Shown: positions 7,167 to 49,245, counted from the stretch's first letter. The stretch is 64,000 bases of DNA from Candidatus Staskawiczbacteria bacterium RIFOXYB1_FULL_38_37 (GCA_001822075.1 MHPK01000003.1:9437-73436); one strand, 5' to 3'. A program made the numbers and translations. The notes: generated by a model from the letters alone, not told the origin.

Positions 7167-7170
7167 AAAT

Positions 7171-9252: not shown

Positions 9253-9279
9253 TTGACATGGCTGCATGAGTGGTATAAT
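9253..9279 (+). promoter_or_regulatory. sigma70-type promoter (TTGACA / TGgTATAAT)
   Basis: TTGACA 9253-9258, 15-nt spacer, extended -10 TGGTATAAT ending 9279. Confidence 0.6.
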
Positions 9280-9285
9280 AAATAG

Positions 9286-9516
9286 CAAGAGGAGTAATCC
9301 TCGTGTCGTTAATTAAAACGACAAACTACTTACGCCACTAGCATGCAGCCGGTGGCGTTTGTGGTTTATGAAACTAGCAAATGCAAAAATTGAATGGATT
9401 GCATGGATTATTAGCAACCAATTTGGTTGCTTGAAGGACTTTTGTATCGAGTGGGAAAAGATTCAAATTAATAGGTTGGTTGTGCCGCCGATTCCGAAAG
9501 GATCGGCGGTTTTGTT
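9286..9516 (+). ncRNA. candidate structured transcript (or mRNA of a 54-aa ORF 9368..9532) upstream of the recombinase
   Basis: Follows a strong promoter. Hairpins: GAGGA-GTAA-TCCTC, GTCGTT/AACGAC, CGCCAC/GTGGCG, ATGCAA/TTGCAT, AGCAACC/GGTTGCT. Ends in a GAAA-looped hairpin plus T-run. Confidence 0.3.
9485..9516 (+). terminator. intrinsic terminator/attenuator hairpin
   Basis: CCGCCGAT(T)CC-GAAA-GGATCGGCGG followed by TTTTGTT; ends 3 nt before the recombinase ATG. Confidence 0.55.
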
Positions 9517-9518
9517 AT

Positions 9519-18934: not shown

Positions 18935-19726
18935 TTATTGAGAAAGATTTTCTGTCTCTACAGAATTGTTATTTTGGATTTTTTGTTGTATTTTCCGCTG
19001 GATTCTTTCTTGAATTTTATTTTTAACATTAGCCCTTATGCTTTCTATTTTTCCTTTTATGTCTTCTGGCATTTTTTCTTTTATCCTGTCTAAAATTTCA
19101 GAATTGATTTCATCTCCGTTTTGAAGGGCATTTTTTACCCTTTCTGCAATTTTCTCTTTGTTATTTTCAAGCTTTTGCATTACCTGGCCGAATCTCTCCA
19201 AATGCCTTTCTCTCGCCTCTTCAATTTTTTCAAAAACTTGTTCTGGAACTTGTCCTTCTAATTTTTGCAATATTTTTTCGTGCAACACCTGTTGGTTTGT
19301 AAATTTTTCTAAAAATTTGCTTACATCTTCATTTTCTGAAGCTTTTTCTTTTATTTTTTCTGCCCTTTCCTTTATTTTATCTACCGCATTTTGATATTTT
19401 TCTGTGGCTTTTTCTATTATTGCCGGGTCAGAAGAATTATCAATAATCTTTTTTAACTCCACTAATTTTTCATTAGTAAATTTATTTTCCAGCTCTAACT
19501 TTTTAACATTATTAAAAATAAAAGTCAGCCTGATTTGCCTGCCCCATTCCTTTAAAAAATAAAAGGGGCTGTCGGGCAGCAGGGTGGGGTCAGATACCCC
19601 GAGGTCTTCAGCTGATGCGTCTTGTGTCTCGGCTGCCGTATTTTCCTGGGCCAAGGCTGTAACAGCCGGCATTAAAACAAAAAACAATACATAAAATATC
19701 AATATAAATTTTGCTGTTTTTGTCAT
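18935..19726 (-). CDS. secreted coiled-coil protein (DUF5667-like)
   Basis: Signal peptide ...AVTALAQE; SPFYFLKEWGR motif; Lys/Glu-rich helical remainder. Confidence 0.6.
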   Translation of the reverse strand: MTKTAKFILIFYVLFFVLMPAVTALAQENTAAETQDASAEDLGVSDPTLLPDSPFYFLKEWGRQIRLTFIFNNVKKLELENKFTNEKLVELKKIIDNSSDPAIIEKATEKYQNAVDKIKERAEKIKEKASENEDVSKFLEKFTNQQVLHEKILQKLEGQVPEQVFEKIEEARERHLERFGQVMQKLENNKEKIAERVKNALQNGDEINSEILDRIKEKMPEDIKGKIESIRANVKNKIQERIQRKIQQKIQNNNSVETENLSQ

Positions 19727-19801: not shown

Positions 19802-21421
19802 TTAACGTATTTCGTCTTTTCTTTCTTTTATAAAATACCTCCATTTTTCCAAAAATTCCACAAGAGCTGAAAAAGGCATGTCTATTAAAACGTTAAAAAA
19901 CGCAGCTACGGCGTTATATTTTTTCCATTTGTTGGAAATCCATTTGCCAAGCCCCTGTATTGGCAGAAAAAACACATCTGATAAAAAGCTCACAAAATCT
20001 TCTTTTTCTTCTTCTATGGTAAGCTCTTGGGCCCTTTTTGAAACAGTGGTTCCCGCAAACAATATTAATGCAATAAATATTATGTTTATAATAATTGAGC
20101 TCAAAGGAAACCCAAAATAATCAAATATAAAATATATAGCTCCAAAAGAAGCAAGAGTTGATAAAGCATATATAAAAGAAATTACCATTCTTGTAATAAC
20201 CCCCCGTTTTTTTTTGGCTTTTATCTCATATATGTCACGTTCCTTCTTTTTATAAACTATTTTCATAGTTTCCATTACGGCAATATTCAAGTTATTTTTT
20301 GAAGGCCTTTTTATAGTCGAGACAATTAAAAACATTAAAAGAGTGGGAACTAAAACATCAGCCATCAATGTTATAGGGCTTACATGGCCTATGAATATTT
20401 TTGCAAGCAAAATTTCTAAAATTACTAAAGAAAGTATTTTGGTGGCAAAAATTGATATTGTAGAATAAAAGGCTGCCCGCTGCATTCTTTGTTTTAAGGT
20501 GGACAGCCTTTTTGAATAAGCTGATTTGATAAGCGGCTCTAAAAAAGACGGATCTGATATTTCATTAAGTTTTTCTGATTCGATTTGCGAGAGAATATCT
20601 CCAAGCAAAAGGTAAGGAGTATCATATTTTTCGCAAATTGCATAAAATTTTGCGCCAAAATGGTTTGCAAGGTCTTTTTCTATGCCGCGCCAGATTTTAT
20701 ATATATTTTGGGATATTTTAAGCAAAAATTGCTCGTCAGTTTTTTTCCATTGAGGATATTTATATTTTATTAAATTGTAGCTTATTATCGGCTTGTCTAA
20801 TTTAAAAAGCGCCAATTGCACAGCAATATAAATTTGTACGTCAACGTTTTCTTTTTTTAAAAAATTTGTTTCATAAACTTTTTCTGAAACATTTATTCTT
20901 TTTTTCATTTTAGAAAACATATATTCAATCAAGGACATCTCTCTTATGGAGGGGCAGAGGGCTTCTTCAATTTCGCAAGAACAAACTTCTATTAGCCAAT
21001 TATAAAATTGCAGGCCTGCCCGGCCCGCCTTGTTTTCTGGGTTATTTTTTAATATAAAAATATACTTGTCTATTATGTTTTGGACTTCCTGTATTTTTGA
21101 TTCTTCAATTTTATCATTGGGAAAATGGCCTCCTCTTATAAACTCTAAAAGCAGGGATTCTGCTGTATCTTCGGTTTTTGTAAAATCATTGAGCTCTAAA
21201 TCCAAAAATTTTCTTTTCAGTTTTCTTATTATTGCGGCTCTCCTCATTAAATGCTCTTCTTTCCAGTCTACGATGGTTCTTATTTGTTCATAAAAAGCGG
21301 CCACTTTTTGAGCGACTTCATCAACGTGTATTCTGGGTGTGTTTGCAACCAACTGCTCTGTGAGCTTGGCTAATTTATACTGCTGTATCAATTTTTTTGT
21401 TGATTCTGATAATTCAGCCAT
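19802..21421 (-). CDS. hypothetical multi-pass membrane protein (539 aa)
   Basis: ORF track; soluble N-terminal half, several TM helices in the C-terminal half. Confidence 0.6.
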   Translation of the reverse strand: MAELSESTKKLIQQYKLAKLTEQLVANTPRIHVDEVAQKVAAFYEQIRTIVDWKEEHLMRRAAIIRKLKRKFLDLELNDFTKTEDTAESLLLEFIRGGHFPNDKIEESKIQEVQNIIDKYIFILKNNPENKAGRAGLQFYNWLIEVCSCEIEEALCPSIREMSLIEYMFSKMKKRINVSEKVYETNFLKKENVDVQIYIAVQLALFKLDKPIISYNLIKYKYPQWKKTDEQFLLKISQNIYKIWRGIEKDLANHFGAKFYAICEKYDTPYLLLGDILSQIESEKLNEISDPSFLEPLIKSAYSKRLSTLKQRMQRAAFYSTISIFATKILSLVILEILLAKIFIGHVSPITLMADVLVPTLLMFLIVSTIKRPSKNNLNIAVMETMKIVYKKKERDIYEIKAKKKRGVITRMVISFIYALSTLASFGAIYFIFDYFGFPLSSIIINIIFIALILFAGTTVSKRAQELTIEEEKEDFVSFLSDVFFLPIQGLGKWISNKWKKYNAVAAFFNVLIDMPFSALVEFLEKWRYFIKERKDEIR

Positions 21422-21430
21422 TTTTTAAAA

Positions 21431-23245
21431 TTACTTTTTTTCTTGGATTTCTTTTTTAATTTTTTCAATAAATTTTTCTAAAGGCATTTGACCATCGTCT
21501 CCTTTTCCGCGGGCTCTTACAGAAACAGCAGAAGCTGAAATTTCTTTATCGCCCAAAATCAAAAGATAGGGGATTTTTTGCATTTCAGCTTCCCTGATTT
21601 TTTTACCCAAAGTTTCATTTTCATCTCTTAACTCAACGCGCAAATTATTATCTTTTAATTTTTTAATAATTTCTTTGGCATAGTCTGCGTGCTTTTCAGA
21701 AATAGGTATTACAGAAACCTGAATGGGGGACAGCCACAAAGGAAACGCCCCTTCGTATTTTTCAATCAAAAATGCCATTGTTCTTTCAACAGCCCCTATT
21801 GAAGAGCGGTGTATCACGATTGCTTCTTTTTCTTTGCCGTCTGAATCTGTGTAAACTAAATTAAATCTTTTTGGACCCACAAAATCATATTGCACAGTAA
21901 AGGCTGTATCTTCTTTGCCAGAAAAATTTTTCATTTGGATATCTATTTTTGGCCCGTAAAAAGCAGCCTCATTTTCTGCCTCAAAAAACGGGGCGTTCTT
22001 TTCTTTCAAAACTTTTCTTAAGATATTTTCTGCAAAATCCCATGCCCTATCATCTTTGTAATATTTTTTTGAATCTCTTTTATCTCCCAAAGACAATCTG
22101 TATCTGTAATCAACTCCGGATTTTAATTCAAATATGCCGGCCATATCTTCTATTAATTTAAGAGCCAAGTTTATTTCTTTTTCTGCCTGGTCTTTTTGGC
22201 AAATTATGTGAGAGTCGGCAAGGCAAAAACATCTTACCCTTGCCAGGCCGGTCAGTTCTCCAGATTTTTCATACCTGTATTGTTTAGCTAATTCTGCAAT
22301 TCTAAATGGCAGTTCTCTGTAAGACCTTGGTTTTGCCAAATAAAGCTGGTAGTGGTGGGGGCAGGTCATAGGCCTTAAAATAAGTTCTTCTTCGTCAACT
22401 TTCATCACAGGATACATGGTGTCTTTATAATAAGGATAGTGGCCGGATTTTTTAAATAAATCAACTTTTGCCAAATCCGGAGTGCATACATGTTTGTATC
22501 CTCTTTTTATTTCTTCGTCAACAATCAATCTTTCCAGCTCTCTTCTTATGGCAGTGCCCTTTTCTGTATATAGGGGTAATCCTTTTCCAACAATATCAGA
22601 AAATATGAACAGGTCTAGTTTTTTTCCTAAAACTCTATGGTCGCGTTTTTCTGCCTCCTCCTGCATTTTTACATAATCTGAAAGCTCTTTTTCAGTTGTA
22701 AAAGCCAAACCATAAATGCGGGTTAACATTTTATTTTTTTCAGAGCTCTTCCAGTAAGCCCCTGCAATTCTTGTGAGCTTAAAAGCTTTTGGGTTTATTT
22801 CTGAAGTGTTTTTTACATGAGGCCCTTTGCACAAATCTGTAAAAGCTGGTGGGATGTCCGACATCCCACCACTGGTGGGATGTCGGACATCCTTTAAAAC
22901 TATCGTGGTTATGTAAACAGAAACATTTTTGCCGGGCAGTTCTTTTATCAGTTCTAATTTGTATGGCTGGTCTTTAAATAATTTTTTGGCCGCCAGTTTT
23001 GTGATATCTTTTTTGATAAATTTTTGGTCTTGTAAAATCAGCTCTTTCATGCGAGCTTCAACTTTTTTGATAAACTCGTCTTGTCCGCCTTCGCTAATGG
23101 CTTGGGCGGGTAATAAAAAGTCGTAGTAAAATCCGTTTTCAATTGCCGGGCCCATTCCTAATTTTGCTTTTGGGTGCAATTCAAGCACAGCTTGCGCCAT
23201 TATATGCGATAGGGAATGACGAATGTTTTCAATATTTTCTGCCAT
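21431..23245 (-). CDS. thrS: threonyl-tRNA synthetase (no TGS domain)
   Basis: Editing-domain start HSLSHIMAQAV, DLCKGPH, class II core and anticodon-binding domain. Confidence 0.95.
   Translation of the reverse strand: MAENIENIRHSLSHIMAQAVLELHPKAKLGMGPAIENGFYYDFLLPAQAISEGGQDEFIKKVEARMKELILQDQKFIKKDITKLAAKKLFKDQPYKLELIKELPGKNVSVYITTIVLKDVRHPTSGGMSDIPPAFTDLCKGPHVKNTSEINPKAFKLTRIAGAYWKSSEKNKMLTRIYGLAFTTEKELSDYVKMQEEAEKRDHRVLGKKLDLFIFSDIVGKGLPLYTEKGTAIRRELERLIVDEEIKRGYKHVCTPDLAKVDLFKKSGHYPYYKDTMYPVMKVDEEELILRPMTCPHHYQLYLAKPRSYRELPFRIAELAKQYRYEKSGELTGLARVRCFCLADSHIICQKDQAEKEINLALKLIEDMAGIFELKSGVDYRYRLSLGDKRDSKKYYKDDRAWDFAENILRKVLKEKNAPFFEAENEAAFYGPKIDIQMKNFSGKEDTAFTVQYDFVGPKRFNLVYTDSDGKEKEAIVIHRSSIGAVERTMAFLIEKYEGAFPLWLSPIQVSVIPISEKHADYAKEIIKKLKDNNLRVELRDENETLGKKIREAEMQKIPYLLILGDKEISASAVSVRARGKGDDGQMPLEKFIEKIKKEIQEKK
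22848..22892. repeat. GC-rich palindrome GGTGGGATGTCCGACATCCCACC plus a partial second copy, in frame in thrS
   Basis: Read directly; translates on the minus strand as HPTSGGMSDIPPA, inserted before the conserved FTDLCKGPH. Confidence 0.85.
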
Positions 23246-27033: not shown

Positions 27034-27669
27034 ATGATTTATCCGAATTTTAGTGAAGAAAAAAAGTTGTGGAAAAAGGGATATAAGTTGGTTGCAGGAT
27101 TAGATGAAGCCGGCAGAGGCCCTTTGGCTGGGCCAGTTGTGGCTGCGGCCGTAATTTTTAATTTTAAATTTCCAAATAAATTTTTAATTAAACAATTTCC
27201 AATGATAAAAGATTCCAAAAAAATGACAGTTAAACAACGGGAAGCTACGTATGAATTTTTGACTAATCACCCGGATATAAAGTGGGGAGTGGGCATAGTT
27301 TCAGAAAAAGTTATAGATAAAATAAATATTTTAGAAGCCACAAAACTGGCAATGAAAAAAGCAGTCGGTGGGGTGTCGGACACCCCACCGGACTTTTTGC
27401 TTTTAGACGGGAATTTTAAATTAGAGAATATTAATTTGCCGCAAAAAAGCATTATAAAAGGGGATTCAAAAGTTTTTTCAATTTCTGCCGCTTCCATTAT
27501 AGCAAAGGTGACGCGGGACAGAATAATGCAGAAATACCATAAAAAATATCCTGAATATAATTTTTTAAAACATAAGGGATATGGCACAAAAGCTCATTTT
27601 GCCAGCTTGCAAAAATTCGGGCCGTGTAAAATACACAGAAAAAGTTTTTACCCCGTTAAATTTTGTTGA
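27034..27669 (+). CDS. rnhB: ribonuclease HII
   Basis: GLDEAGRGPLAGPVV and LLLDGN motifs. Confidence 0.9.
   Translation: MIYPNFSEEKKLWKKGYKLVAGLDEAGRGPLAGPVVAAAVIFNFKFPNKFLIKQFPMIKDSKKMTVKQREATYEFLTNHPDIKWGVGIVSEKVIDKINILEATKLAMKKAVGGVSDTPPDFLLLDGNFKLENINLPQKSIIKGDSKVFSISAASIIAKVTRDRIMQKYHKKYPEYNFLKHKGYGTKAHFASLQKFGPCKIHRKSFYPVKFC
27366..27391. repeat. 26-nt GC-rich palindrome CGGTGGGGTGTCGGACACCCCACCGG, in frame in rnhB
   Basis: 12-bp arms; codon-checked translation GGVSDTPP; identical copy at 33897-33922. Confidence 0.9.
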
Positions 27670-27752: not shown

Positions 27753-28160
27753 ATGGATAAAAAAATATTGCTTTCAACGGTTCCCATAATTATAGCCTTA
27801 ATAGCGGGCGGAGTAATTGGAATGTATTTTCAGTTTCAGAAAGATTCTTTTGAAATTGACAAAGGCAAAAAAATGGCGGCTGTTTTAAATTCTTTGTCTT
27901 CAAGGGCAGTTCCGTCTGTTGTGGCTTTTGGCAGTGTTTCAAAAATAGACGGCAGAAGCATTACCTTAACCTATGGCGGAGAAAACATAACAATAAATAT
28001 TTCAGATGACGTTAAAATATATTCTTCTTCCGGAAACGAGCAGGCTATTGCGCCGTTTGAAATAATTAAAGTTGGAGATAATTTAAGCATTAACATAAAA
28101 GTTATTCCCGAAGGCCAATTGCAAGGCCAGTCTATTATTATACTAAGCGTTGCAAATTAA
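27753..28160 (+). CDS. small membrane-anchored protein (paralog A)
   Basis: N-terminal TM helix; shares AFGSVSKIDGRSITLTYGGE...I.I..D..IY core with 28184..28633. Confidence 0.6.
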   Translation: MDKKILLSTVPIIIALIAGGVIGMYFQFQKDSFEIDKGKKMAAVLNSLSSRAVPSVVAFGSVSKIDGRSITLTYGGENITINISDDVKIYSSSGNEQAIAPFEIIKVGDNLSINIKVIPEGQLQGQSIIILSVAN

Positions 28161-28183: not shown

Positions 28184-28633
28184 ATGAGCAGAACAATAGC
28201 AATTACTTTAATAGCAATAACAATTTTAATTTCTTTGGCTTTGGGCACGGGCATTGGAATTTTTTACCAAATGCAAAAAACCGCCCCGCAATTGGTTGTA
28301 GCTGAAAAGAACGCTGTAGCCGTAAAGGGTTTAAGCTCGGCCTTGGTTCTTTCAGCTGTGGCCTATGGCCAGGTTTCAGCTATTGACGGAAGAAAGATTA
28401 CTTTGACCTATAAAGGCGAAACTATGCAGATAGAAATTGCCAAAGATGCTTTGATTTATTACTTGCCAACTACCGGCGGGAGCCTCAAATTGACCGAAGC
28501 TAATGTTCAAAAAGCAAAAATTAGCGATATCAAAAAAGGAGACTTGTTAAACATTACAATAACAGTTTCTTCAGACGGGGTTTTGACAGGGAACAATGTC
28601 AGCATTGTAAGCTCTGCCGCAGAAATTAAATAA
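28184..28633 (+). CDS. small membrane-anchored protein (paralog B)
   Basis: N-terminal TM helix; AYGQVSAIDGRKITLTYKGE core shared with 27753..28160. Confidence 0.6.
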   Translation: MSRTIAITLIAITILISLALGTGIGIFYQMQKTAPQLVVAEKNAVAVKGLSSALVLSAVAYGQVSAIDGRKITLTYKGETMQIEIAKDALIYYLPTTGGSLKLTEANVQKAKISDIKKGDLLNITITVSSDGVLTGNNVSIVSSAAEIK

Positions 28634-28659: not shown

Positions 28660-31600
28660 ATGAAAAAAAACTCATTGGTAATAATTATAGGTATACTATT
28701 TTTTTTGGCAGCCGCAGGAATAGGAGTTTTTTATTACACACATAATAATTTTGCAAAAGCTGCTATGCTCGGCGAACAATGTGGTAAGGGACTAGGAGCC
28801 GTAGAAAATTGTAGCACTTTGCCTCCGCCGGAAAATGTTTGCGCGCCAGGTTATACTTTAGTATATTATGGTTGCTCGAACAATGAAATATGCGATCCAT
28901 CTGGTTACAATTGTACGTGTTCGTCTAGGTGTGACCAAACACCACCATGTTCTTTTCTTGGATGTATGACGAGTTGGGCAAATTCAATAACGCTTTGCGA
29001 TACCTATTGTCTTGAAGGTGACTGTTGCTGGAGAGCAACTCCGGAAAGTCCGTGGGATTGTAGTACAGAAGTTTTTAATGATACTTCTAAGGTTAAAATG
29101 TGTGTGGATACCACTCCCGTAGAATGTGCAACTGATGATGATTGTCCAGCCGACGAGCAGACATGTGTTAATAATGACGTACAGACAACTACATATAGTT
29201 GTATTTTTAATGTTTGCCAACCCAATACAACTACAACAGATTGCCTTGAAGATGTTTGGTATGATAACTATCCATGCAGTTGTGAAGATTCTGTGTGTAA
29301 GATTTATCAAACAGGGCGAGATAGAGGTTGTCGTGTAATTGCAAGCGGGGGATCGTTTGCTGAATGTTTTGACGATCCTTTGGAGCAGTGGATCCATACA
29401 TGTAATGCCCCATATTCAACTGCTGATTATTGTAAGGACAACAGCGTCTATTATGATGTGGTGTCTGAAGTTTGCCCGCCCTTAAGGACAGACACGTCTT
29501 GTTATGTGCAAACCAATGACCACAAAAAACAAACCTGTGGCGCTTGTAGCCCAACAGGCAACAAAAGATGCGGGTCATTTACACCCCCTATTTGTGATGA
29601 CCCAATACTCCAACAGCAATGTATGGCTTTTCCCAATGGTCCGTTGTGCGACACTTGCGCGACCCCGTCTTCTGGCATACAAGGAGAATATATTTGTACA
29701 ATATGTTCCGGCGGCGATTGCGTGCCTGGACCGACTCAATGGAAAAACGAATTAAGCTGTGGCACTCCGAGCGATGTTGAATTTACATGGTGCGCAAAGT
29801 CACAGCCGGCAGCTCCTGGTATTAAATGCACCCTTACAGCAAGTTATTCTGCTCAATGCGTTGAAGAACCTAATCCTATTTGCCAGGCGCCGACAATAGA
29901 TATTCAATGCAGCGGCGAATGCAATGATAACTCTGGCGCTCCAGGCGGTGATGGGGGTGGTGGGCTCGGCGGCGAAGATGGAGAAGATGGCGATGATGGC
30001 GGTGAAGGTTATTGGGGCGGACCGGATGAACCGGGCGGTCCAGGTGGCGATGGCGGTGCCGGCGGCGGTGGCGGAGGCGGTACAGGAGACCCTCCTGGTC
30101 CTGGTGGTGATGGCGGCGGTGGAGGCGACGGCGGAGGCGGCGGTCCAGGAAACCCTCCTGGTCCTGGTGGTGATGGTGGCAATGGCGGTCCTCCTGGGCC
30201 CGGTTTCCCTCCCGGAGATCCTGGCCCTCCAGGCCAACCAGGCCCTCCAGGCCCGATAATTCCTGTAGTTGATTACCATACTGAATGTTTTGGGGACAAA
30301 TGTTTATATATTCCAGGCATTGGTGTTAATGATTGCAATAAAAACGCTGATTGCCAAAATAGTTCGCATTATAAATGCAATACTCAAAAGCAGTGCGAGT
30401 TGAAGCCAGAGCCTGGCGTTAGCAACTGTACAACTAATGAAGACTGCGAAAATTATACCCATAATGACTGCAATGACCAAAATCAATGCGAAGTTGCGCC
30501 TGGCATAGGCAGGGACCGCTGTTTTGTTGATGCTAATTGCTTGAATACACAATATAATGCATGCACCATATTTGGAACCTGCATGCCAGTGTATAGGCCG
30601 GGAATTGGCGATTGCGCTTCAGCATCAGAATGTCTTATTGGAGTAGACATCCACACAGACTGCAGTACAGAAAAACAGTGCGTTGTTCTTGATGGCCCCG
30701 GAGATATTGTGTGCCAAGACAATGCATTTTGCCAAAATAATTTTATTGTTCATAACGAATGCATTGATGGTCAATGCGTGGTTGTAGACGGCCCGGGCAT
30801 AGATTTGTGCCAACAGCCGTGTGATTGCAATCCTCTTATTGATAGCCATACAACATGCACAGTGCAAAAATTTTGCCAGTCAGTGCCCGGCCCGGGGTTT
30901 AACATTTGCCCCGACTCTTCGTGGTGCCGCGCCAACACCCACAATATATGCAGCGGGGTTGATGGAAATACTTGCACGGTTGTGCCAGGGGCTGGTTCAG
31001 ACGCATGTTATGGCGACACCCCCGATGATTTCTGTATAGATGACATGGATAACCAGCGCGCTGTATGCACAATAGATGACAGATGCGAGTATTCATACGA
31101 GTCAGGAGGAATTAATGAGTGTCTGACTCCAAATGGATTATATTCTCAAAATTGCGCAGACAATTATCATAATGAATGCCTCGGAGAAACCTGCGTGCCT
31201 ATAAAAAATTCAGTTCCTGGTGTTGACGAGCAAAATGAATGTCTTGATGATGCATTTTGTATAAGCCAAGACAATCCTCCTGAAGCTAGCCAGCTGCAAA
31301 TTTTACAATACGATTACTGTATAGGTGTGCCCGGAGCAAGAATGCTTTCATTTGCTTGGCAATATAAAGACAATGATGTACCTCTTGAGCCCGAAACATA
31401 TTTTGTACTTGAAATAGATACTAATAGCGGATTTGATTCTTCTGATAAAGTTACGTATTTGCAAAACGTAAATGGATTGTTGTCAGGGTCAATAAATCAG
31501 GCGCAAATTTATATGGTGTCTCCCGGGGGTTCAGTGAAGGGAGATTATATTTATTACGGAGTTAATTATTATTGGAGGGTAATGGTTTTCAATGCAAAGG

Positions 31601-32031
31601 GAAACTCTGACTGGACCTATTACGACGGTTCTGTCGGGACTATAATTCAAAACGATGCGCAAACTTTTGTATATAACGGGCATTCTGCCCCATGGCCAGC
31701 TTATACAATTGACCTTGACCCTGCCACAGGCGAGGCCACATTTGCAGACAATAATTCAAAGTGCTACGACGGCGCAAATCCTCTTGGTTATTTTTGCAGA
31801 GAAAACAAAGGCGGCTATAGCTGGTGGTATGGCGATCCAAATCTTCCGCCTGCTTCAGCTGACGATACAGATTATTTAGGCACATCTCATACTTATACAT
31901 CGGGAACATACCAAACATGGCTTCGGGTTTGCGACCCAGATGGCATGTGCTGTTCAGTGTCAAAGGATGTAATACTAAGAGAGCCTGGAACTTCTAACTT
32001 GCCAGACTGGAAGGAAATTTCTCCATTTTAA
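28660..32031 (+). CDS. giant Cys-rich surface/secreted protein with G/P/D low-complexity linker, about ten 4-Cys modules and a PKD-like C-terminus
   Basis: N-terminal anchor IIIGILFFLAAAGIGVFYY; Cys-rich N-domain; GGDGGG/PPGPGG linker; repeated H..C...C..PG.G...C....C units; C-terminal SHTYTSGTYQTWLRVCDPDG (PKD-type). Confidence 0.8.
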   Translation: MKKNSLVIIIGILFFLAAAGIGVFYYTHNNFAKAAMLGEQCGKGLGAVENCSTLPPPENVCAPGYTLVYYGCSNNEICDPSGYNCTCSSRCDQTPPCSFLGCMTSWANSITLCDTYCLEGDCCWRATPESPWDCSTEVFNDTSKVKMCVDTTPVECATDDDCPADEQTCVNNDVQTTTYSCIFNVCQPNTTTTDCLEDVWYDNYPCSCEDSVCKIYQTGRDRGCRVIASGGSFAECFDDPLEQWIHTCNAPYSTADYCKDNSVYYDVVSEVCPPLRTDTSCYVQTNDHKKQTCGACSPTGNKRCGSFTPPICDDPILQQQCMAFPNGPLCDTCATPSSGIQGEYICTICSGGDCVPGPTQWKNELSCGTPSDVEFTWCAKSQPAAPGIKCTLTASYSAQCVEEPNPICQAPTIDIQCSGECNDNSGAPGGDGGGGLGGEDGEDGDDGGEGYWGGPDEPGGPGGDGGAGGGGGGGTGDPPGPGGDGGGGGDGGGGGPGNPPGPGGDGGNGGPPGPGFPPGDPGPPGQPGPPGPIIPVVDYHTECFGDKCLYIPGIGVNDCNKNADCQNSSHYKCNTQKQCELKPEPGVSNCTTNEDCENYTHNDCNDQNQCEVAPGIGRDRCFVDANCLNTQYNACTIFGTCMPVYRPGIGDCASASECLIGVDIHTDCSTEKQCVVLDGPGDIVCQDNAFCQNNFIVHNECIDGQCVVVDGPGIDLCQQPCDCNPLIDSHTTCTVQKFCQSVPGPGFNICPDSSWCRANTHNICSGVDGNTCTVVPGAGSDACYGDTPDDFCIDDMDNQRAVCTIDDRCEYSYESGGINECLTPNGLYSQNCADNYHNECLGETCVPIKNSVPGVDEQNECLDDAFCISQDNPPEASQLQILQYDYCIGVPGARMLSFAWQYKDNDVPLEPETYFVLEIDTNSGFDSSDKVTYLQNVNGLLSGSINQAQIYMVSPGGSVKGDYIYYGVNYYWRVMVFNAKGNSDWTYYDGSVGTIIQNDAQTFVYNGHSAPWPAYTIDLDPATGEATFADNNSKCYDGANPLGYFCRENKGGYSWWYGDPNLPPASADDTDYLGTSHTYTSGTYQTWLRVCDPDGMCCSVSKDVILREPGTSNLPDWKEISPF
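29935..30255 (+). repeat. GC-rich Gly/Pro/Asp low-complexity coding repeat
   Basis: Includes a 60-nt period: CCCTCCTGGTCCTGGTGGTGATGG occurs near 30089 and 30151. Confidence 0.8.
30271..31272 (+). repeat. about ten tandem ~31-33-aa four-cysteine modules (coding)
   Basis: e.g. HTECFGDKCLYIPGIGVNDCNKNADCQN / HYKCNTQKQCELKPEPGVSNCTTNEDCEN / HNDCNDQNQCEVAPGIGRDRCFVDANCLN. Confidence 0.75.
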
Positions 32032-33549: not shown

Positions 33550-34095
33550 ATGCTTACAATAAGATTAACAAGAAAAGGTAAAAAAAATCAGCCGTTTTTC
33601 AGGGTGGTTTTAATAGACAAAAGGAGGTCTGCCAAAGGCGGAAGGGCTGTTGAGGCGCTTGGAAATGTTGACCCTCTTACAAAAAGAAAAAATTTAAAAA
33701 AAGACAGAATTTTATACTGGATTTCAAAGGGAGCGCAAACTTCAGACACAGTGCATAATTTGTTGATTTCTGAAAAAATTATAGAAGGCAAGAAAATTCA
33801 TGTTTCAAAATTAAGCAAGAAGAAACAGGCAGACCTGGCTGCGCAGGCAGGTCTGGCTGCGCAGGCAGGAATAGCCAAAGAAAAATCCGCAAAAAGCGGT
33901 GGGGTGTCGGACACCCCACCGGCTAAAGAGTCAAAAACAGCAGAAGCAAAAGCCCTAGAAACCGGAGCTCCGGTTGAAATACTGCCAGCCCCAGTTGAAC
34001 CAGCCGCGGCTGAAACTCCAGCAGAACCCGAAAAACCGGCAGAACCCGCCTCCGCTGAAAGCTCCGGCGAGGCAAAGCAGCCCCCAACAGCATAA
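33550..34095 (+). CDS. rpsP: ribosomal protein S16 with ~100-aa repeat-built C-terminal extension
   Basis: MLTIRLTRKGKKNQPFFRVV start; Ala/Glu/Pro-rich tail. Confidence 0.9.
   Translation: MLTIRLTRKGKKNQPFFRVVLIDKRRSAKGGRAVEALGNVDPLTKRKNLKKDRILYWISKGAQTSDTVHNLLISEKIIEGKKIHVSKLSKKKQADLAAQAGLAAQAGIAKEKSAKSGGVSDTPPAKESKTAEAKALETGAPVEILPAPVEPAAAETPAEPEKPAEPASAESSGEAKQPPTA
33827..33871 (+). repeat. 18-nt direct repeat x2.5 (CAGGCAGRYCTGGCTGCG) in the rpsP tail
   Basis: Codon-checked: encodes QADLAAQAGLAAQAG; CAGACCTG and CAGGTCTG are reverse complements. Confidence 0.85.
33897..33922. repeat. second copy of the 26-nt palindrome, in frame in rpsP
   Basis: Identical to 27366-27391; translates GGVSDTPP. 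Confidence 0.9.
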
Positions 34096-41786: not shown

Positions 41787-44700
41787 ATGGAAAAAGATAA
41801 GTTGAACGTCGCTAAAAGAATCTTTGTAAAGCTCAATGTTTTGCTGCTGATTTTTGGTTTCTTGTTTCAGCCGCCAGCTGGCGTTTTTGCGCAAAACGAA
41901 ACAAATGAAAAGCCGCCCACTTCTATACAAATAAGCGATAAGGCCGACAAAACAAAAACCCAGCTTGATAAAGCGCTTGAAGAGGTTCAGCCTAAAGACG
42001 AAAATAAAAATTTTGAGAAAGAGCAGAGCCAAGAAGATTCTTCAGCCGCAGAGCCTGTAGAGCAAGCCTCTGCCGTCGAGGACGAAAAAACTTCTAATTC
42101 AAACCGCATAACTATTGATGTTGATTATGCGACAGGCGCTTTTTCATATAAATATAAGCTTGACATTCCTGCTGGGCGCAATAGCTTAAACCCTATAATA
42201 GATTTAAAATATAATTCCGAAGATAAAAACAATGCCTCGGAAATAGGTTTTGGGTGGTCTTTGTCTATTCCAAAAATTAAAAGGCTCAATAAAAGGGGAG
42301 TTAATTTGCTGTATGAAAGCAACGATTTTTATTCATCGCTCTCTGGCGAACTCGAAAAAATATCCGAAAGCGCTTTTGGCGCAAAAATTGATGATGGCTC
42401 AATGTTGGATTACCAATTAAACAATAATGTTTGGACAGTTACAGCAAAGGATGGAACAAAATATATATTTGGCGGAGAGACGTCTGCCATGCTTGAAGAC
42501 CCTTCTGATTTGTCAAAGGTTTACGAATGGTATTTAAGCAGAATTGAAGACACAAACGGAAATTTTATTTCATACAATTATTATGATGACACAGCCAACA
42601 ACGTTGTTTACCCCGATTCGATTACTTACACAAATTATGGCGGAAGCGCAGGTATTTATGAAATTGATTTTATAAAAGAGGCAAGGCCAGATGAATATTT
42701 TAGTTATGCTCCCGGATTTTTAACAAAGACAACAAAAAGAACTGCCCAAATTCAAGTTTTAACCAATGGATTATGGACTAGAAAATATGTATTAGGATAT
42801 GAACAGGGCGATAATGGTTACCGCTCCATGCTCAATTCTGTAACTGAATACGGCAGAGATGAAGCGGGTGCAATAACCGCTTTGCCCGAAATGAGCATGT
42901 TATACAGCGCAGGAGAAAACAGCTTAGTTAATAACAGCAATAATAATTTTCCATGGCCCGAATCTCAAAACCAGCCGGCCTCTCCTTTTTCTCTTGCCGA
43001 CGGATATCTGCGCGTAATGGATTTAAACGGCGACGGATTAAAAGACATCGCCAAATCATACAATATCCAGATAAACGGAATTGATAAGCCGGTATTTTGG
43101 GTTTTGGTTAACACCGGCCACGGCTGGGCGCAAGACACCAGCTGGACCCAGCCTATTTACTCTTTTGTTGATGGACAGGGCAGAACCATTGAAGGAAAAT
43201 TTGTTTTTTCAGGAATTGACACAGGAGATTGGAATGGAGACGGTAAAGATGACTTAATCAGGTTTTGGAGAGAAGACTTGGGCGGAGGCAGGGATTTGCA
43301 GCACGTTGTGGTTCTTTTGAATAATGGCTCTGGTTGGACGCAAGATAAAAATGTTTCAATTGATAATATTACATATTCTAATGCTTGTACTGGCGGCAGC
43401 ATATATATTATGTCTGGAAATTCGGGCGGACGTTTTGTTGATTTAAACGGCGATGGTTTTTTAGATTATGTTTATGCTTATAATATACAAATCAATGGCG
43501 TACACTGTCCGATATTTGCAGTGCTTTACAATGAAGGAGGAAACTTAAAATGGGACCAAAGCGTTACTGTGCCCTGGGTAAATAATGGCTCTGGCAGCGC
43601 CCCGCTTTCCCTAAACGACAGCATAAAAGCTCTTGATTTAAACGGCGATGGTTTGCTTGATTTTATATGGGCCTTGGATAACTCCAATCCTTATTTTTGG
43701 GTTTTGATAAACACCGGCCACGGCTGGGCGCAAGACACCAGCTGGACCCAGCCCACATACACATATTTAAGTCCATCAGGGGCTCCTCAAAATGGATACT
43801 TCATAACTTCGTCTGGAGCTGGCTGGCGGCCCATGGAAATAAATGGGGATAATTTGGTTGATTTTGTGAGACTTTGGACCATTGACATCGGAGGCGGGCA
43901 TTCAGTTGGCCGAAGCGCTGTTTTGGTTAACACCGGCCACGGCTGGGCGCAAAACGATTCTCTGCTTGCTGTTGGCAATTATACGGCCAGCAATAACGCA
44001 ACTGGCTATCCTATAACAACTAAAATGTCAGCAACCATAATTTTTGATGCTAATGGCGATGGAATGGACGACATAATGCATACAGCAGTTTCGCAGACAA
44101 ACGGAGTTTATGATGTAACAGACTGGCTTATGCAAAATACAGGGCATTCTGCCAATCTTGTAGAAAAAATAACTCTTCCTGAAGGCGGAAACTTTTCGTT
44201 TGATTATAAGGCAAGCACAAGCTACACAGACCAATCTGGCAATCTTTTAAACCCAAATCTTCCAATAACCTATAACACATTAAAATCTGTAACAAGTAAC
44301 GATGGCTTTGGAAATCAGGCAGTTACAACTTACGAATATGCAGATGGAAGCTATTTTTATAATAACGTCTATGACCGCAGGTTTGCCGGATACGGAAAAA
44401 TTACAGTTCAAGACCCTGTTGGCAATAAAACTATAATTTATAATCATTTAGGCAATGGCTTGCAGGCGGGAGAAACGGGTTCTGACCCGGCTGACGGAAG
44501 CTTAATAGGCAAAGCTTACAAAACGCAACGTTATGATGCTTCAGGAAACCTGTTTTCTGAAGCATATACAGATTGGGTGAGTTATGATTTAGGAAATAAT
44601 AGAGATTTTACGTATAAGGCAAAAGAAGTGTCCAATGAATCCGGAAAACAGAGCGCTGTTGAATATATTTATAATACAACCACAGGAAATTTAACAAACC

Positions 44701-47700
44701 AAACCAATTATGGCAAAGTATTGGCTTTGGCTGGCAATTTTACTGACATAGAAGCAGACAAGCGCGCAGCAAACTACACCTATACAGCAGCAGGCCCCAT
44801 ATTGCCCTCAACATTAGAAATTCTTAACCATACAGGCAACAAAGTCAGCCAGAAAAAATTTTATTATGATAACCAGCCGCTCGGCGCAGCTGTTAAGGGA
44901 AACCAGACAAAAATTGAATTTTGGCTATCGGGCGGCGCATACATTAACTCTCAAAAAACCTATACCAACAATGGTCTGGTGAAAACAGAAACCGACCCAA
45001 TGGGCAACGTCACAGAATACTTTTATGATGCTTATGATATGTATCCTGAAGTTGTTACCAATCCGTTATCTCAAAGCGCTTATTATGTTTATGATTATGG
45101 CATTGGAAAACCAAAACAAATCACGGACGCCAACGGGAATATATTTAAAAATTATTTTGACGGCTTGGGCAGAATTTTAAGGGCAGAACAGCCGGACGAA
45201 ACTAACCCTGCAGTTTTAGTTATTAAAACATCTTATATTTATAATAATGCCTCGCAAGCCGTGAGCATCCAAAAAACAGATTATCTGGATTCCTCAAATT
45301 TTGTTTCCAGTTATAATTATTACGACGGCTTGGGCAGAATTATCCAAACAAAAAAATCTGCTGAAAATAATAATTTTTCAACAAAAGATTTTGTTTATGA
45401 TAACCGTGGAAATTTGCAAAAAGAATCTTTGCCGTATTTCTCAAATATTTCAGCAAGAACAGCATCCAGCTCAACGTCGCAGCTTTATACAACTTATGTT
45501 TACGATGCTTTAAATCGTAAAATCAGCGAAACAAACGCAGTTGGTGCAACTTCTTTTGCATACCAAAACTGGCAGACAACAATTACAGACGCAAACAACA
45601 AACAAAAAGATTATGTTTATGACGCATATAATAATTTAATCCAGGTAAAAGAGCATAAAAGAGCTTACACATATATAACCTCTTATGTTTATGATGCAGC
45701 CGGAAATTTAATAAACATCACAGATGCTTTGGGAAATGTGCGCAATTTTAGCTATGACAAATTAGGCAGAAGGTTAACATCCCAAGATTTGCGCAGCCCG
45801 GCGGATTCTGTTTTTGGCGCGTGGAGATATTTTTATGACCGCAACGGAAATTTAATCAGTTCAATTAATCCTGAAAGGCAGATAATTGTTTATACCTACG
45901 ACGCATTAAACCGCAAAACTAGCGAAAACGATACTAGCCAAACAGGCGCAGAGTTAGTTTTGAGATATGACGATTGCAAAAATGGCGCAGGAAAGCTTTG
46001 TTATGCAGCTCCATTCGGGCTAAAAGAAAATTTTGAATATTCGCCAACGGGAAACACAACTAAAGACACAAAAAGAATTGCTGATACGTTTGTAGCCAGA
46101 ATTTTTGCAACAGAATATGCTTACGACCGCCAGGGCAATCAAACTTTAATTACAAACCCTGATTTATCGCAAATAAAATACCAATATAATATGGGAGGCT
46201 ATCCGGAAAAAGTTTTGTATAAAGAATCGAGCGGCGCAGATTTTGCAGAAATTGTAAGCAACTTTGATTATACGTCTGCAGGCCAAATTTCAGACATTTA
46301 TTATGCCACCGGCGCCCACACAACAAACACTTATGACGCAAACAAGCTTTATAGATTAACAAAAAAATTATCTGTTTCCGGAGACGTTAATCTGCAGGAT
46401 ATTTCTTACCAATATGACAATGTTGGAAATATAAAACAGATAATTGATAATTCCAGCACAGATGCCAGAAAAACCGTGGTTTATGTTTACGACGATTTAT
46501 ACAGATTAACTTCAGCTTCGGCAACCAACACAGCCAACAGCCAGAATTATACTGAAAGTTTTGTTTACGACGCAATAGGAAATATATTGTCAAAAAAAAT
46601 AAATGGAGAAAAAATAAATTACAGATACAAAGGAAATTTAAACAATACTGGCTCTGATTATGCAAACCCTGACGCCGCGACAGAAATAGCAGGAGATGTT
46701 TCAACCAGCTATAAATACGACCGCAACGGGAATATGACCGGCCAAGGATTGAATATATACAAGTATGACTATAACAATCGGCTGTTATCTTTTACTGCGC
46801 CGGGCGACCCCGCCCCTTATGATGGAAGAATAGATTATGCCTATGACCACACAGGTCAGAGAATAAAAACAAGAAAATTCGCCAGCGATGGAATTTTTGT
46901 GACATATTATCCAACTATGTATTACAACAAATTGCGGGACGAAATCACAAAGCATATTTTTGCAAACGGCTTAAATCTTGCTACAATAGAAGTAACAGGG
47001 GACACAGCAAAAACATATTTTAACTTTTCAGACTCCCTTCAAAGCTCAAGTGTGATGACCGACCAAACCGGAGCTGTTGTGGAAACAATGGATTACTACC
47101 CGTTTGGCGAAATACGGCTAGACAGCAAAACAGCAGATTTTGCAGAACAGCGCAAATACATAGGTCAGGAATACGACGAGGACACAGGGCTCAACTACCT
47201 TAATGCCAGATACTACAACTCCGCCATAGCAAGGTTCGTGACCCAAGACCCGATGTTTTGGAACTTTGACAGTTCATGGCTGGCAGACCCCCAAAACCAA
47301 AATGCGTACGCATACGCGCGGAACAACCCGATAACATTGTCAGACCCCTCTGGCGAAAAAGCATGGATAGAGTCTAAGTCAGTTTTTGATGTAAGGGGAA
47401 ATGCTGTTGGAATTCATACTTATTTTAAAGCAGTTCCAAATCATCCCGACGAAATTAATATTCAGGGTTTGCCCAAAGGAGCAGAGGGATTTACTATGGG
47501 CGGATATAACAGCAGTAATTTTGGTCCGACTAACAAGTTGATAAAAAATATGGGAACCACTGAAACGAGCTGGGATAAAGATACAGCTTTTGGTGATGGG
47601 GTGAAAATAAATAGCATGGAGATTAATCCGCCCGAAGGTCAAAATGACACTCAATTTATTAATAATCTCGGAAAGATTTATAATGAAACTGACTTGTCGG

Positions 47701-47975
47701 GAATGAATTATTTTAGTCTTGGTAATGTTAGAATAGGGAACACAAGTCTCTTTTATGATGCAAACTGCAACAATTTTTCTTACACACTAGGCGTAAAGGC
47801 AGGAGTAAAAGACCAAATGGATTCATTTGATCCAGGTCCTGGCGTATCTAGATCTATAGGTGAATATGGTTATAAGACAACCCTACCAACGACAAGTGTG
47901 TATAGAGAAATTAAGAATCAAATAAACTCATTAAAAGAAAGAGTTGGTAGTTTTATTAGTTCATTAAATAAATAA
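41787..47975 (+). CDS. SpvB/FG-GAP(VCBS)/RHS-repeat polymorphic toxin (2062 aa)
   Basis: Signal peptide; SpvB-type GFGWSLSIP; six DxNGDGxxD repeats; many YD repeats (YxYDxxGN); RHS core ...YLNARYYNSAIARFVTQDP...NNPITLSDPSGE; ~205-aa unassigned C-terminal domain. Confidence 0.9.
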   Translation: MEKDKLNVAKRIFVKLNVLLLIFGFLFQPPAGVFAQNETNEKPPTSIQISDKADKTKTQLDKALEEVQPKDENKNFEKEQSQEDSSAAEPVEQASAVEDEKTSNSNRITIDVDYATGAFSYKYKLDIPAGRNSLNPIIDLKYNSEDKNNASEIGFGWSLSIPKIKRLNKRGVNLLYESNDFYSSLSGELEKISESAFGAKIDDGSMLDYQLNNNVWTVTAKDGTKYIFGGETSAMLEDPSDLSKVYEWYLSRIEDTNGNFISYNYYDDTANNVVYPDSITYTNYGGSAGIYEIDFIKEARPDEYFSYAPGFLTKTTKRTAQIQVLTNGLWTRKYVLGYEQGDNGYRSMLNSVTEYGRDEAGAITALPEMSMLYSAGENSLVNNSNNNFPWPESQNQPASPFSLADGYLRVMDLNGDGLKDIAKSYNIQINGIDKPVFWVLVNTGHGWAQDTSWTQPIYSFVDGQGRTIEGKFVFSGIDTGDWNGDGKDDLIRFWREDLGGGRDLQHVVVLLNNGSGWTQDKNVSIDNITYSNACTGGSIYIMSGNSGGRFVDLNGDGFLDYVYAYNIQINGVHCPIFAVLYNEGGNLKWDQSVTVPWVNNGSGSAPLSLNDSIKALDLNGDGLLDFIWALDNSNPYFWVLINTGHGWAQDTSWTQPTYTYLSPSGAPQNGYFITSSGAGWRPMEINGDNLVDFVRLWTIDIGGGHSVGRSAVLVNTGHGWAQNDSLLAVGNYTASNNATGYPITTKMSATIIFDANGDGMDDIMHTAVSQTNGVYDVTDWLMQNTGHSANLVEKITLPEGGNFSFDYKASTSYTDQSGNLLNPNLPITYNTLKSVTSNDGFGNQAVTTYEYADGSYFYNNVYDRRFAGYGKITVQDPVGNKTIIYNHLGNGLQAGETGSDPADGSLIGKAYKTQRYDASGNLFSEAYTDWVSYDLGNNRDFTYKAKEVSNESGKQSAVEYIYNTTTGNLTNQTNYGKVLALAGNFTDIEADKRAANYTYTAAGPILPSTLEILNHTGNKVSQKKFYYDNQPLGAAVKGNQTKIEFWLSGGAYINSQKTYTNNGLVKTETDPMGNVTEYFYDAYDMYPEVVTNPLSQSAYYVYDYGIGKPKQITDANGNIFKNYFDGLGRILRAEQPDETNPAVLVIKTSYIYNNASQAVSIQKTDYLDSSNFVSSYNYYDGLGRIIQTKKSAENNNFSTKDFVYDNRGNLQKESLPYFSNISARTASSSTSQLYTTYVYDALNRKISETNAVGATSFAYQNWQTTITDANNKQKDYVYDAYNNLIQVKEHKRAYTYITSYVYDAAGNLINITDALGNVRNFSYDKLGRRLTSQDLRSPADSVFGAWRYFYDRNGNLISSINPERQIIVYTYDALNRKTSENDTSQTGAELVLRYDDCKNGAGKLCYAAPFGLKENFEYSPTGNTTKDTKRIADTFVARIFATEYAYDRQGNQTLITNPDLSQIKYQYNMGGYPEKVLYKESSGADFAEIVSNFDYTSAGQISDIYYATGAHTTNTYDANKLYRLTKKLSVSGDVNLQDISYQYDNVGNIKQIIDNSSTDARKTVVYVYDDLYRLTSASATNTANSQNYTESFVYDAIGNILSKKINGEKINYRYKGNLNNTGSDYANPDAATEIAGDVSTSYKYDRNGNMTGQGLNIYKYDYNNRLLSFTAPGDPAPYDGRIDYAYDHTGQRIKTRKFASDGIFVTYYPTMYYNKLRDEITKHIFANGLNLATIEVTGDTAKTYFNFSDSLQSSSVMTDQTGAVVETMDYYPFGEIRLDSKTADFAEQRKYIGQEYDEDTGLNYLNARYYNSAIARFVTQDPMFWNFDSSWLADPQNQNAYAYARNNPITLSDPSGEKAWIESKSVFDVRGNAVGIHTYFKAVPNHPDEINIQGLPKGAEGFTMGGYNSSNFGPTNKLIKNMGTTETSWDKDTAFGDGVKINSMEINPPEGQNDTQFINNLGKIYNETDLSGMNYFSLGNVRIGNTSLFYDANCNNFSYTLGVKAGVKDQMDSFDPGPGVSRSIGEYGYKTTLPTTSVYREIKNQINSLKERVGSFISSLNK

Positions 47976-48412: not shown

Positions 48413-48578
48413 GTTAAAGGGGTCAGGTACCTTTGATTGTCATTCTAATCGTGATACACTTAATTAATGCCAAGGGTTTTACGAGTATAAGGGTTAAGGG
48501 GAGGGTTAAGGGGTCAGGTACCTTTGATTGTCATTCTAATCGTGATACACTTAATTAATGCCAAGGGTTTTACGAGTA
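48413..48578 (+). repeat. tandem duplication (75 + 74 nt, ~92-nt period) of the RayT left end
   Basis: GTTAA(A)GGGGTCAGGTACCTTTGATTGTCATTCTAATCGTGATACACTTAATTAATGCCAAGGGTTTTACGAGTA occurs twice. Copy 2 carries the real ATG (48558). In copy 1 the same ATG is followed by a stop after 7 codons. Confidence 0.9.
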
Positions 48579-49245
48579 GATATTGGAAATCAAATTTACC
48601 ATGTCCTTAATCGGGCAAATGCCCGTTTGCCGATTTTTTTTAAAGAACAAGATTATCAGTTGTTTGAGAACATTCTTGAAAATGGCCGTGAAAAGTTTGA
48701 TATGCGTATTTTAGCTTACTGCTTGATGCCGAATCATTTTCACTTAGTCTTGCAACCTAAGGAAGATGGCGGTTTGCAAAGGTTTATGCAGTGGGCGACC
48801 TTAACACACACGCAACGTTGGCACAGCCAAAACAAAACCATAGGCTCGGGGCACCTGTATCAGGGCAGATACAAATCGTTTATCATACAAGAAGACAACC
48901 ACTTATTGGCAGTCATCAGATATGTGGAGCGCAACCCGCTCCGAGTTAATATTGTCAAACAAGCAGAAGATTGGCGCTTTTCAAGTTTGTACCGCAGGAT
49001 GTTTCCAAAAGAATTTAAAATGCATAAAAGAATTTTGTCAGACCTGCCGATTGATATGCCCAAAGATTATCTCGCTTTTGTTAACCAACCGCAAACAAAC
49101 GAAGAAATCGCGGCTATACGTTATTCGGTTAACCGCGGCAGACCTTTTGGCAATTGTGAGTGGGCTGATAAAATTATTAAGGCGTTCGGGCTTGAATCAA
49201 CCGTACGGAGCAGGGGCAGGCAAATCAAAGGTACCTGACCCCTTT
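48416..49245 (+). mobile_element. RayT gene bracketed by 23-bp inverted repeats
   Basis: AAAGGGGTCAGGTACCTTTGATT (48416-48438, and one A shorter at ~48508-48529) versus its exact reverse complement AATCAAAGGTACCTGACCCCTTT (49223-49245); each holds the AGGTACCT palindrome. Confidence 0.65.
48558..49238 (+). CDS. REP-associated / IS200-like Y1 (HUH) tyrosine transposase (RayT-like)
   Basis: YHVLNRANARLPIF, HUH motif LMPNHFHLVL, catalytic-Tyr region IRYVERNPL. Confidence 0.85.
   Translation: MPRVLRVDIGNQIYHVLNRANARLPIFFKEQDYQLFENILENGREKFDMRILAYCLMPNHFHLVLQPKEDGGLQRFMQWATLTHTQRWHSQNKTIGSGHLYQGRYKSFIIQEDNHLLAVIRYVERNPLRVNIVKQAEDWRFSSLYRRMFPKEFKMHKRILSDLPIDMPKDYLAFVNQPQTNEEIAAIRYSVNRGRPFGNCEWADKIIKAFGLESTVRSRGRQIKGT

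Follow-up and report, generated by a model that had tools for sequence, protein, structure and literature searches.

Bacteria of the Candidate Phyla Radiation (CPR) live attached to other cells. As they have not been cultivated and annotation treats their surface proteins as hypothetical, next to nothing is known of the molecules that make this contact. Large cysteine-rich extracellular CPR proteins have been described for Peribacteria, with a proposed role in attachment (Anantharaman et al. 2016, PMC4736985), and secreted proteins bearing immunoglobulin (Ig)-like and PKD domains show high expression in methanogen-attached Parcubacteria (PMC10936435). Here we analyse a stretch of 64,000 nucleotides (the window) from Candidatus Staskawiczbacteria bacterium RIFOXYB1_FULL_38_37 (GCA_001822075.1, MHPK01000003.1:9437-73436), an uncultivated, ultra-small member of the Parcubacteria within the CPR, and in it a gene for a cysteine-rich protein of 1123 residues (Table 1). 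The product is exported and modular, with a conserved C-terminal cassette and tail, a variable head, a portable repeat stalk and a gene linkage to small anchored proteins; its display on the cell surface we infer.

By its size, signal peptide, cysteine content and CPR origin, the protein falls into the class of large cysteine-rich extracellular CPR proteins. Like those of Peribacteria, it is large, has a signal peptide, is predicted to be extracellular and is high in cysteine (8.5%, against more than 7% there), and it shares with them the type of organism and the aquifer datasets of origin. Those proteins, however, were reported to resemble the Myxococcus cysteine-rich repeat weakly and to carry FG-GAP annotations, whereas the module of the present protein shows no such match, and neither the tail motif nor the small-protein partners are described in that paper. 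A second likeness is to the sortase-anchored (LPXTG) surface proteins of Gram-positive bacteria, which have a signal peptide, a variable head, a repeat stalk and a conserved C-terminal retention element in the same order. Other proteins with the module end in PETx, a transmembrane segment and a basic tail; in the window protein neither a hydrophobic segment nor a basic tail comes after LPDWKEISPF. The general kind of protein is thus already known; what appear to be undescribed are the family of four-cysteine modules, the Ig-PKD-tail cassette, and the linkage of this cassette to a small anchored protein.

The open reading frame is intact and begins with ATG. It encodes 95 cysteines (8.5%), together with 12.1% glycine, 9.0% aspartate and 8.1% proline. 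The domain order given in the first-pass annotation of this DNA holds: a hydrophobic segment is followed by a cysteine-rich head, a Gly/Pro/Asp spacer, the four-cysteine modules and two beta-sandwiches, after which the protein ends in LPDWKEISPF. That annotation missed the two most conserved elements, namely the tail motif at the C-terminus and the small anchored proteins whose genes lie upstream. The whole sequence, used as query, matched no family in Pfam or NCBIfam (NCBIfam, 0 at E <= 10), and neither these databases nor the PDB revealed a catalytic or toxin domain in any part of it.

Table 1. Features of the locus in window positions; the last two columns compare regions of the protein with those of the ortholog P0002.
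Feature	Position	Strand	Residues	Description	Cys kept in ortholog	Identity
Small N-anchored protein A	27753-28160	+		135 residues; one N-terminal transmembrane segment and a beta-rich ectodomain of ~100 residues
Small N-anchored protein B	28184-28633	+		149 residues; paralog of A; N-terminal transmembrane segment and a beta-rich ectodomain of ~100 residues
Cys-rich secreted/surface protein, whole open reading frame	28660-32031	+	1-1123	1123 codons plus stop; ATG start; uninterrupted
Signal peptide or signal anchor	28660-28764	+	1-35	hydrophobic core ~5-26; possible cleavage FAKA/A
Cys-rich head	28765-29934	+	36-425	390 residues, 48 Cys
Head tip		+	36-146	divergent	7/15	25%
Head core		+	147-425	common to only four other proteins (P0002, P0003, P0020, P0059)	29/33	42%
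Pre-linker Cys subdomain	29536-29934	+	293-425	hmmsearch with the last columns of the head alignment
Gly/Pro/Asp low-complexity spacer	29935-30264	+	426-535	110 residues: 58 Gly, 24 Pro, 12 Asp
63-nt tandem duplication in spacer	30052-30180	+		2.0 copies, 86% matches
Array of ten four-Cys modules	30271-31272	+	538-871	~30 residues each; nine canonical, one degenerate (799-835)	41/41	61%
C-terminal region					6/6	49%
First beta-sandwich	31276-31629	+	~873-990	FN3-like/Rha78A-N-like Ig domain with YYWRV motif
PKD domain	31672-31977	+	~1005-1106	four extra cysteines
C-terminal tail	31978-32028	+	1107-1123	ends LPDWKEISPF
Hairpin after stop codon	32046-32072	.		perfect 12-bp stem; possible end of transcription unit

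Word-index homology searches found almost nothing (one match for the modules plus C-terminus and one for the head). When 1.84 billion representative proteins were searched exhaustively, 208 matches reached E <= 0.001; 151 proteins were examined further. The best match of the exhaustive search was a full-length, intact ortholog of 1140 residues (P0002), 54% identical and lying in the same synteny (locus L002). Three further assemblies (L003 to L005; NCBI, JGI and ENA) carry the gene without a single base changed and may all sample one population; the comparison of repeat number among strains suggested by the first-pass annotation was run on these three and, the sequences being identical, no variation was seen. 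Exact copies of the flanking proteins (DNA polymerase III alpha, both small upstream proteins and NusB) are found in several NCBI genomes of Candidatus Staskawiczbacteria.

The gene is therefore real, being neither absent nor fragmented in close relatives, either of which the first-pass annotation had named as speaking against it. We rejected the possibility of a pseudogene or fragmented gene, as both apparent fragmentations proved to be artefacts. A "fragment" of 343 residues (P0152) is the false product of a chimeric contig end (ENA ERZ4902888, NODE_464; locus L001), where the contig follows the window with 100% identity as far as position 29615 and then runs into about 200 nt of unrelated sequence (contig positions 10957-11155). 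In the NCBI record of L003 (GCA_003518025.1, locus positions 6477-9848), three short coding sequences of 67, 79 and 543 residues are annotated on identical DNA that holds the intact 1123-residue reading frame. Given these split calls, and since the exact full-length protein is absent from a large protein collection, the gene is under-annotated in public data.

The C-terminal part of the protein (residues ~866-1123, about 250 residues) forms a cassette, which we define as an Ig and PKD pair followed by a terminal [LP]PxW[KR]E[IV]SPF. The window protein has all of these elements, matches the cassette profile at 3.4e-73 and is the only such reading frame in the window. The cassette was matched in 83 of the 151 proteins, nearly always at their own extreme C-terminus. 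To place its domains, an alignment of 44 rows (the window protein and 43 homologues) was scanned row by row against Pfam. PKD_4 was matched in 36 rows (best 1.8e-13) and PKD in 31, and the profile of the cassette family matches the PKD domains of the Clostridium collagenase ColH at 7e-17. As in PKD domains of this kind, the second C-terminal domain carries the signature W-x-[FY]-G-D, H-x-Y...G-x-Y...L-x-V-x-D; unlike an ordinary PKD domain, the window copy has four extra cysteines and is followed by the conserved tail. The window sequence alone stays below the Pfam cut-off for PKD_4 of 27 bits (10.9 bits, E = 0.48 for the whole protein; 17.2 bits, E = 0.0054 for the isolated C-terminus), and PKD membership (PF18911/PF00801) is therefore shown for the family profile, not for this sequence alone.

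The first sandwich relates to the Rha78A-like N-terminal Ig domain (PF25788), which was matched in 26 of the 44 rows (best 5.7e-12), the window sequence itself again falling below threshold. It carries YYWRVMV...DW, and its assignment as a Rha78A-N-like Ig or FN3-like domain comes from the alignment rows and from the Ig-like sandwich with this motif. The likeness to Rha78A and to FN3 pairs thus lies in the YYWRV...W motif and in a model that superposes on FN3-FN3 pairs; in contrast to Rha78A, no glycoside hydrolase is attached. In the AlphaFold2 model the cassette consists of two packed beta-sandwiches, with a predicted local distance difference test score (pLDDT) of 90 and a predicted template modelling score (pTM) of 0.82, and Foldseek retrieved tandem FN3-FN3 pairs at E of about 1e-5, these being generic matches with TM-scores of 0.2-0.4. 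The beta-rich region and PKD-like end seen in the first reading of the sequence are accordingly borne out at the level of profile and model.

The last 17 or so residues have no secondary structure in this model (pLDDT ~65). They nevertheless form the most conserved short motif of the family, found in every case at the C-terminus or a few residues from it, and contribute 4 of the 28 most conserved columns. Among the 44 sequences, E254 and P257 never vary, while P250 and W252 are kept in 90% or more (alignment numbering). A strict regular expression of the tail was matched at the C-terminus of 67 of the 150 database matches and a loose form at that of about 80. When one genome per GTDB species was scanned for [PG]xWKEISPF, 17 loci were confirmed, all labelled Staskawiczbacteria, Saccharibacteria or Patescibacteria. 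Two tail-bearing genes occur in some Patescibacteria, in tandem (L021, 2-991 and 1436-4990) or on separate contigs (L018 and L020; L011 and L022), and the cassette for this reason makes up a small paralogous family within genomes. We found no mention of the tail motif in the literature searched, text matches to the tail peptide being irrelevant. A sortase (LPXTG), exosortase or archaeosortase signal was considered and rejected, as neither a hydrophobic segment nor a basic tail follows LPDWKEISPF, and the protein has no C-terminal transmembrane segment, LPXTG signal, SLH domain or other known wall-binding domain.

Directly upstream of the gene lie two small genes whose products, A and B, are 40% identical to each other and match nothing in Pfam or the PDB. 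Their family comprises 76 relatives, all short hypothetical CPR proteins, and its members stand directly upstream of cassette-bearing genes in the window and at three other loci (L002, L015 and L017), with both small genes present upstream of the ortholog at L002. The linkage was also followed in the reverse direction, from five small-protein loci sampled on long contigs. In 4 of the 5, a nearby downstream gene carried the cassette and ended in W[KR]E[IV]SPF; in one of these four (L023), only a C-terminal fragment of 220 residues was called, about 1.4 kb downstream of the small gene, with a minus-strand reading frame called in between. At the fifth locus, the downstream gene, with 11% cysteine and the pre-linker subdomain, was cut by the contig end. 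Taken together, one or two small genes precede the big gene directly in the window and at seven other loci, the locus cut by the contig end being an eighth. Small protein and cassette gene thus form a recurrent gene cassette, though not a universal one.

Between spacer and cassette lies the array of four-cysteine modules, in which a hidden Markov model of a single module recovers 9 copies between residues 539 and 868 (independent E-values of 5e-11 to 5e-5). The cysteine spacing is strictly periodic (4-5/10/5/7-9), and the core can be written [H]-x2-C-x4-5-C-x4-G-x-G-x3-C-x5-C. The ten modules counted in the first-pass annotation therefore amount to nine clear ones and a degenerate one, while the formula written there matches no module literally, the invariant pair being GxG and not PG. 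By this definition the array belongs to a family of four-cysteine CPR modules, of which we found 628 copies in 92 of the 151 proteins. Over 631 aligned copies the four cysteines are conserved at about 99%, the histidine three residues before Cys1 at 86% and the two glycines at 89%, and acidic positions are conserved as well. The near invariance of the cysteines leaves no correlated loss from which disulfide connectivity could be deduced.

That the module corresponds to no named repeat family, as first suggested, holds. The module region of the query gave nothing in Pfam or NCBIfam even at E <= 10, and a profile of 23 module arrays had 0 matches to PDB sequences at E <= 10. Scanned singly against Pfam, the 23 arrays gave no consistent match. 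Only P0123 matched DUF7107 (PF23416; 1e-8 for the trimmed array, 4e-6 for the full protein), and membership in DUF7107 was rejected, as the query and the other 21 homologous arrays had no match. AlphaFold2 modelled residues 536-871 with a mean pLDDT of 74 and a pTM of 0.32, each module being alike, with Cys1 and Cys2 on a two-strand hairpin, a G-x-G loop that leads to Cys3, and Cys4 at the end of a short helix. The best Foldseek match of this model in the PDB had E = 3.2, which, given that Foldseek is weak on tiny disulfide-rich units, is no proof of a new fold. As short, tandem, cysteine-stabilised extracellular units, the modules resemble EGF-like and LDL-A domains, the Myxococcus cysteine-rich repeat (TIGR02232/DUF4215) and DUF7107, and one relative is named "Notch-like protein" in one database source. 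They differ from these in having four cysteines instead of six, another spacing, a conserved histidine and the GxG turn, and the query matched none of these models significantly; with a spacing of 4-5/10/5, which is neither the six-cysteine (EGF) nor the CGDG type, and no Pfam or NCBIfam match, they do not belong to TIGR02232, DUF4215 or the EGF-like domains.

The surroundings of the array vary from protein to protein. Among the 78 proteins with at least 3 modules, 14 end in the tail cassette, 11 end in a transmembrane segment plus basic tail (preceded in some by a PETx motif) and 10 have a transmembrane segment after the array, so that arrays stand N-terminal to the cassette or to a C-terminal or later transmembrane segment in 35 of the 78. 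The module thus behaves as a portable spacer of secreted proteins, often set between an N-terminal part and a C-terminal anchor, a placement for which we call the array a stalk. A four-cysteine module is also found behind the type IV pilin N-terminal methylation motif in P0112 (390 residues), and modules occur in P0001, P0006 and P0011, which have N-terminal GYAW..GWINF repeats and a C-terminal transmembrane segment with a CarboxypepD_reg region; given these occurrences, the module is common to several kinds of CPR envelope protein.

The spacer that precedes the array is encoded by DNA with a GC fraction of up to 0.67, compared with about 0.36 in the flanks, owing to its GGN and CCN codons. 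A GC-rich Gly/Pro/Asp linker with an internal duplication had been noted at first reading, and both are present, the duplication measuring 63 nt and not 60, the linker 110 residues and not about 107. A foreign origin of the GC-rich stretch was rejected, as the glycine and proline codons explain the GC content and the ortholog's linker is of the same kind. In place of the spacer, homologues carry low-complexity linkers of unrelated sequence, for instance DDLIPDDL repeats or poly-Pro.

The head, which varies between family members, has no match in Pfam or the PDB over residues 36-425. Its pre-linker subdomain recurs in 11 other family proteins, directly before low-complexity linkers that are unrelated in sequence. 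The N-terminal anchor of the first-pass annotation is only in part upheld. Residues ~5-26 do form a single hydrophobic segment, the only one in the protein, but it may be either a cleaved signal peptide or an anchor: an AxA motif follows it (AKA/A here, AYA/G in the ortholog) and most family members have short, ordinary signal peptides that look cleavable.

The explanation that we favour, and to which we give an even chance, is that of a Sec-exported, disulfide-rich, multi-domain stalked surface protein with a variable head, which would dock through its C-terminal cassette and bind a host or partner with its head. The disordered spacer would separate the lineage-restricted, fast-diverging head from the module chain; the 9-10 modules would make a stiff stalk, each unit stapled by two disulfides; the conserved end, made up of cassette and tail, would dock the protein to the envelope, most likely via the co-encoded small anchored proteins; and the head, held away from the cell, would bind the host or partner surface. 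Signs of export are the single N-terminal hydrophobic segment, the cysteine content of 8.5%, the retention of all 41 module cysteines in the ortholog, and domains of extracellular type. With signal peptides that look cleavable, most homologues would have to be retained in some other way. The "host or partner adhesion" of the first reading is plausible by analogy.

Several observations weigh against this explanation. The N-terminal segment of both the window protein and its ortholog spans 21 residues and looks like the small proteins' anchors (G-x-G-I-G-x-F-Y); it might therefore remain membrane-embedded, and the cassette would then lie at the distal end. The link between tail-bearing cassette and small protein is one of co-location only, and some tail-bearing genes have no detectable small gene adjoining them: L014 has RNase HII directly upstream, and L010 none in the visible upstream DNA. 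The model of the modules is only moderately confident (pLDDT 74). Lastly, the module disulfides are assumed, and the organism lives in anoxic groundwater.

The protein could instead stand the other way round, as the first-pass annotation implied, with an uncleaved signal anchor keeping the head near the membrane and the stalk projecting the Ig-PKD-tail cassette as a binding tip, the small proteins then being accessory membrane partners. The 21-residue hydrophobic core is enough to span a membrane and is similar to the anchors of both upstream proteins, and PKD and Ig-like domains have often been proposed as adhesion domains of Parcubacteria (PMC10936435). We hold this orientation to be rather unlikely, as an AxA site follows the segment in both orthologs, most of the family have short signal peptides of cleavable appearance, and elsewhere these modules precede C-terminal anchors; moreover, a binding tip is normally variable, yet conservation is highest in the cassette and divergence greatest in the head tip. 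It is improbable, in our judgement, that the protein is released altogether, as a matrix component or as an effector or toxin acting on a host cell, with the tail as a recognition tag for processing or target binding. A cleavable-looking signal peptide would suit release, as would the lack of a C-terminal transmembrane segment, LPXTG signal, SLH or other known wall-binding domain, but no catalytic or toxin domain was found, and the strict linkage to genes for small membrane-anchored proteins points to a complex associated with the cell.

Two further alternatives concern single parts of the protein. The cysteines and histidine of the modules might bind zinc or iron, making the array a metal-binding or redox element and not a disulfide-stapled stalk. 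We consider this quite improbable: the 86% conservation of the histidine, the invariant cysteines, the conserved acidic positions and a habitat that is probably anoxic would all agree with it, while a spacing of 4-5/10/5 lacks the CxxC knuckles typical of zinc or iron sites, there are no CxxCH haem motifs, the protein is exported, and related CPR genomes are reported to encode disulfide-forming functions (PMC4736985). Hardly credible is a bacterial collagen-like triple helix in the Gly/Pro-rich segment that would trimerise the protein. It is hinted at by short GPP/GQP triplets at the end of the linker and by PDB sequence matches of residues 486-568 to collagen chains (best E 0.012); these matches, at E >= 0.012, reflect composition, the longest Gly-X-Y run has 10 triplets, mostly Gly-Gly-X, and homologues swap the spacer for unrelated low-complexity linkers. 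With no long uninterrupted Pro-rich (Gly-X-Y)n, the protein is not a collagen-like protein. Overall, release, metal binding and a collagen-like linker are less likely than the surface-docked protein and its N-anchored rival.

The neighbourhood of the gene is mostly housekeeping: dnaE and rnhB precede the three genes discussed here, and rpmF, nusB, rnc and rpsP follow. No sortase or pilus genes turned up among the window genes scanned, which were mainly housekeeping and regulatory. Whether the hairpin behind the stop codon acts as a terminator is uncertain, because no clean T-run follows it on the plus strand. Elsewhere in the window, a near-perfect palindrome of 23-27 bp (GGTGGGGTGTCGGACACCCCACC) occurs at 22848-22870, 27365-27391 and 33898-33920, zero copies being expected by chance. 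It lies in frame within the genes for threonyl-tRNA synthetase (minus strand), RNase HII and ribosomal protein S16, adding the peptide GG[V/M]SD[T/I]PP to each; as the element is a palindrome, the peptide is the same whichever way round it lies, and it resembles the in-frame palindromic elements of Rickettsia. The window also encodes a polymorphic-toxin-like protein of 2062 residues with SpvB, FG-GAP and RHS repeats (41787-47975, plus strand), with an IS200-like Y1 transposase just downstream (48558-49238, plus strand), and a DUF5667 protein (18935-19726, minus strand) adjoining a protein of 539 residues without a Pfam match (19802-21421, minus strand), a gene pair kept beside the genes for threonyl-tRNA synthetase and DnaE in related contigs.

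For the study of CPR surfaces, the locus provides three searchable elements, i.e. the stalk module, the cassette with its near-invariant tail, and the co-encoded small anchored protein, for none of which Pfam, NCBIfam or the PDB holds a counterpart. A bolder proposal, which we advance tentatively and think unlikely as a whole, is that cassette, tail and small anchored proteins make up a CPR-specific surface-docking, or protein-sorting, system, with a role like that of sortase/LPXTG or SLH in other monoderm bacteria, and that the four-cysteine unit is a new extracellular repeat fold building the stalks of a CPR host-attachment apparatus. Should tail and small protein not dock, the protein would be one more large cysteine-rich hypothetical surface protein, of a class noted in 2016. 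If they do form a docking pair, this would explain how secreted CPR proteins without a known anchor are retained, and it would provide a means of searching any CPR genome for its full displayed repertoire.

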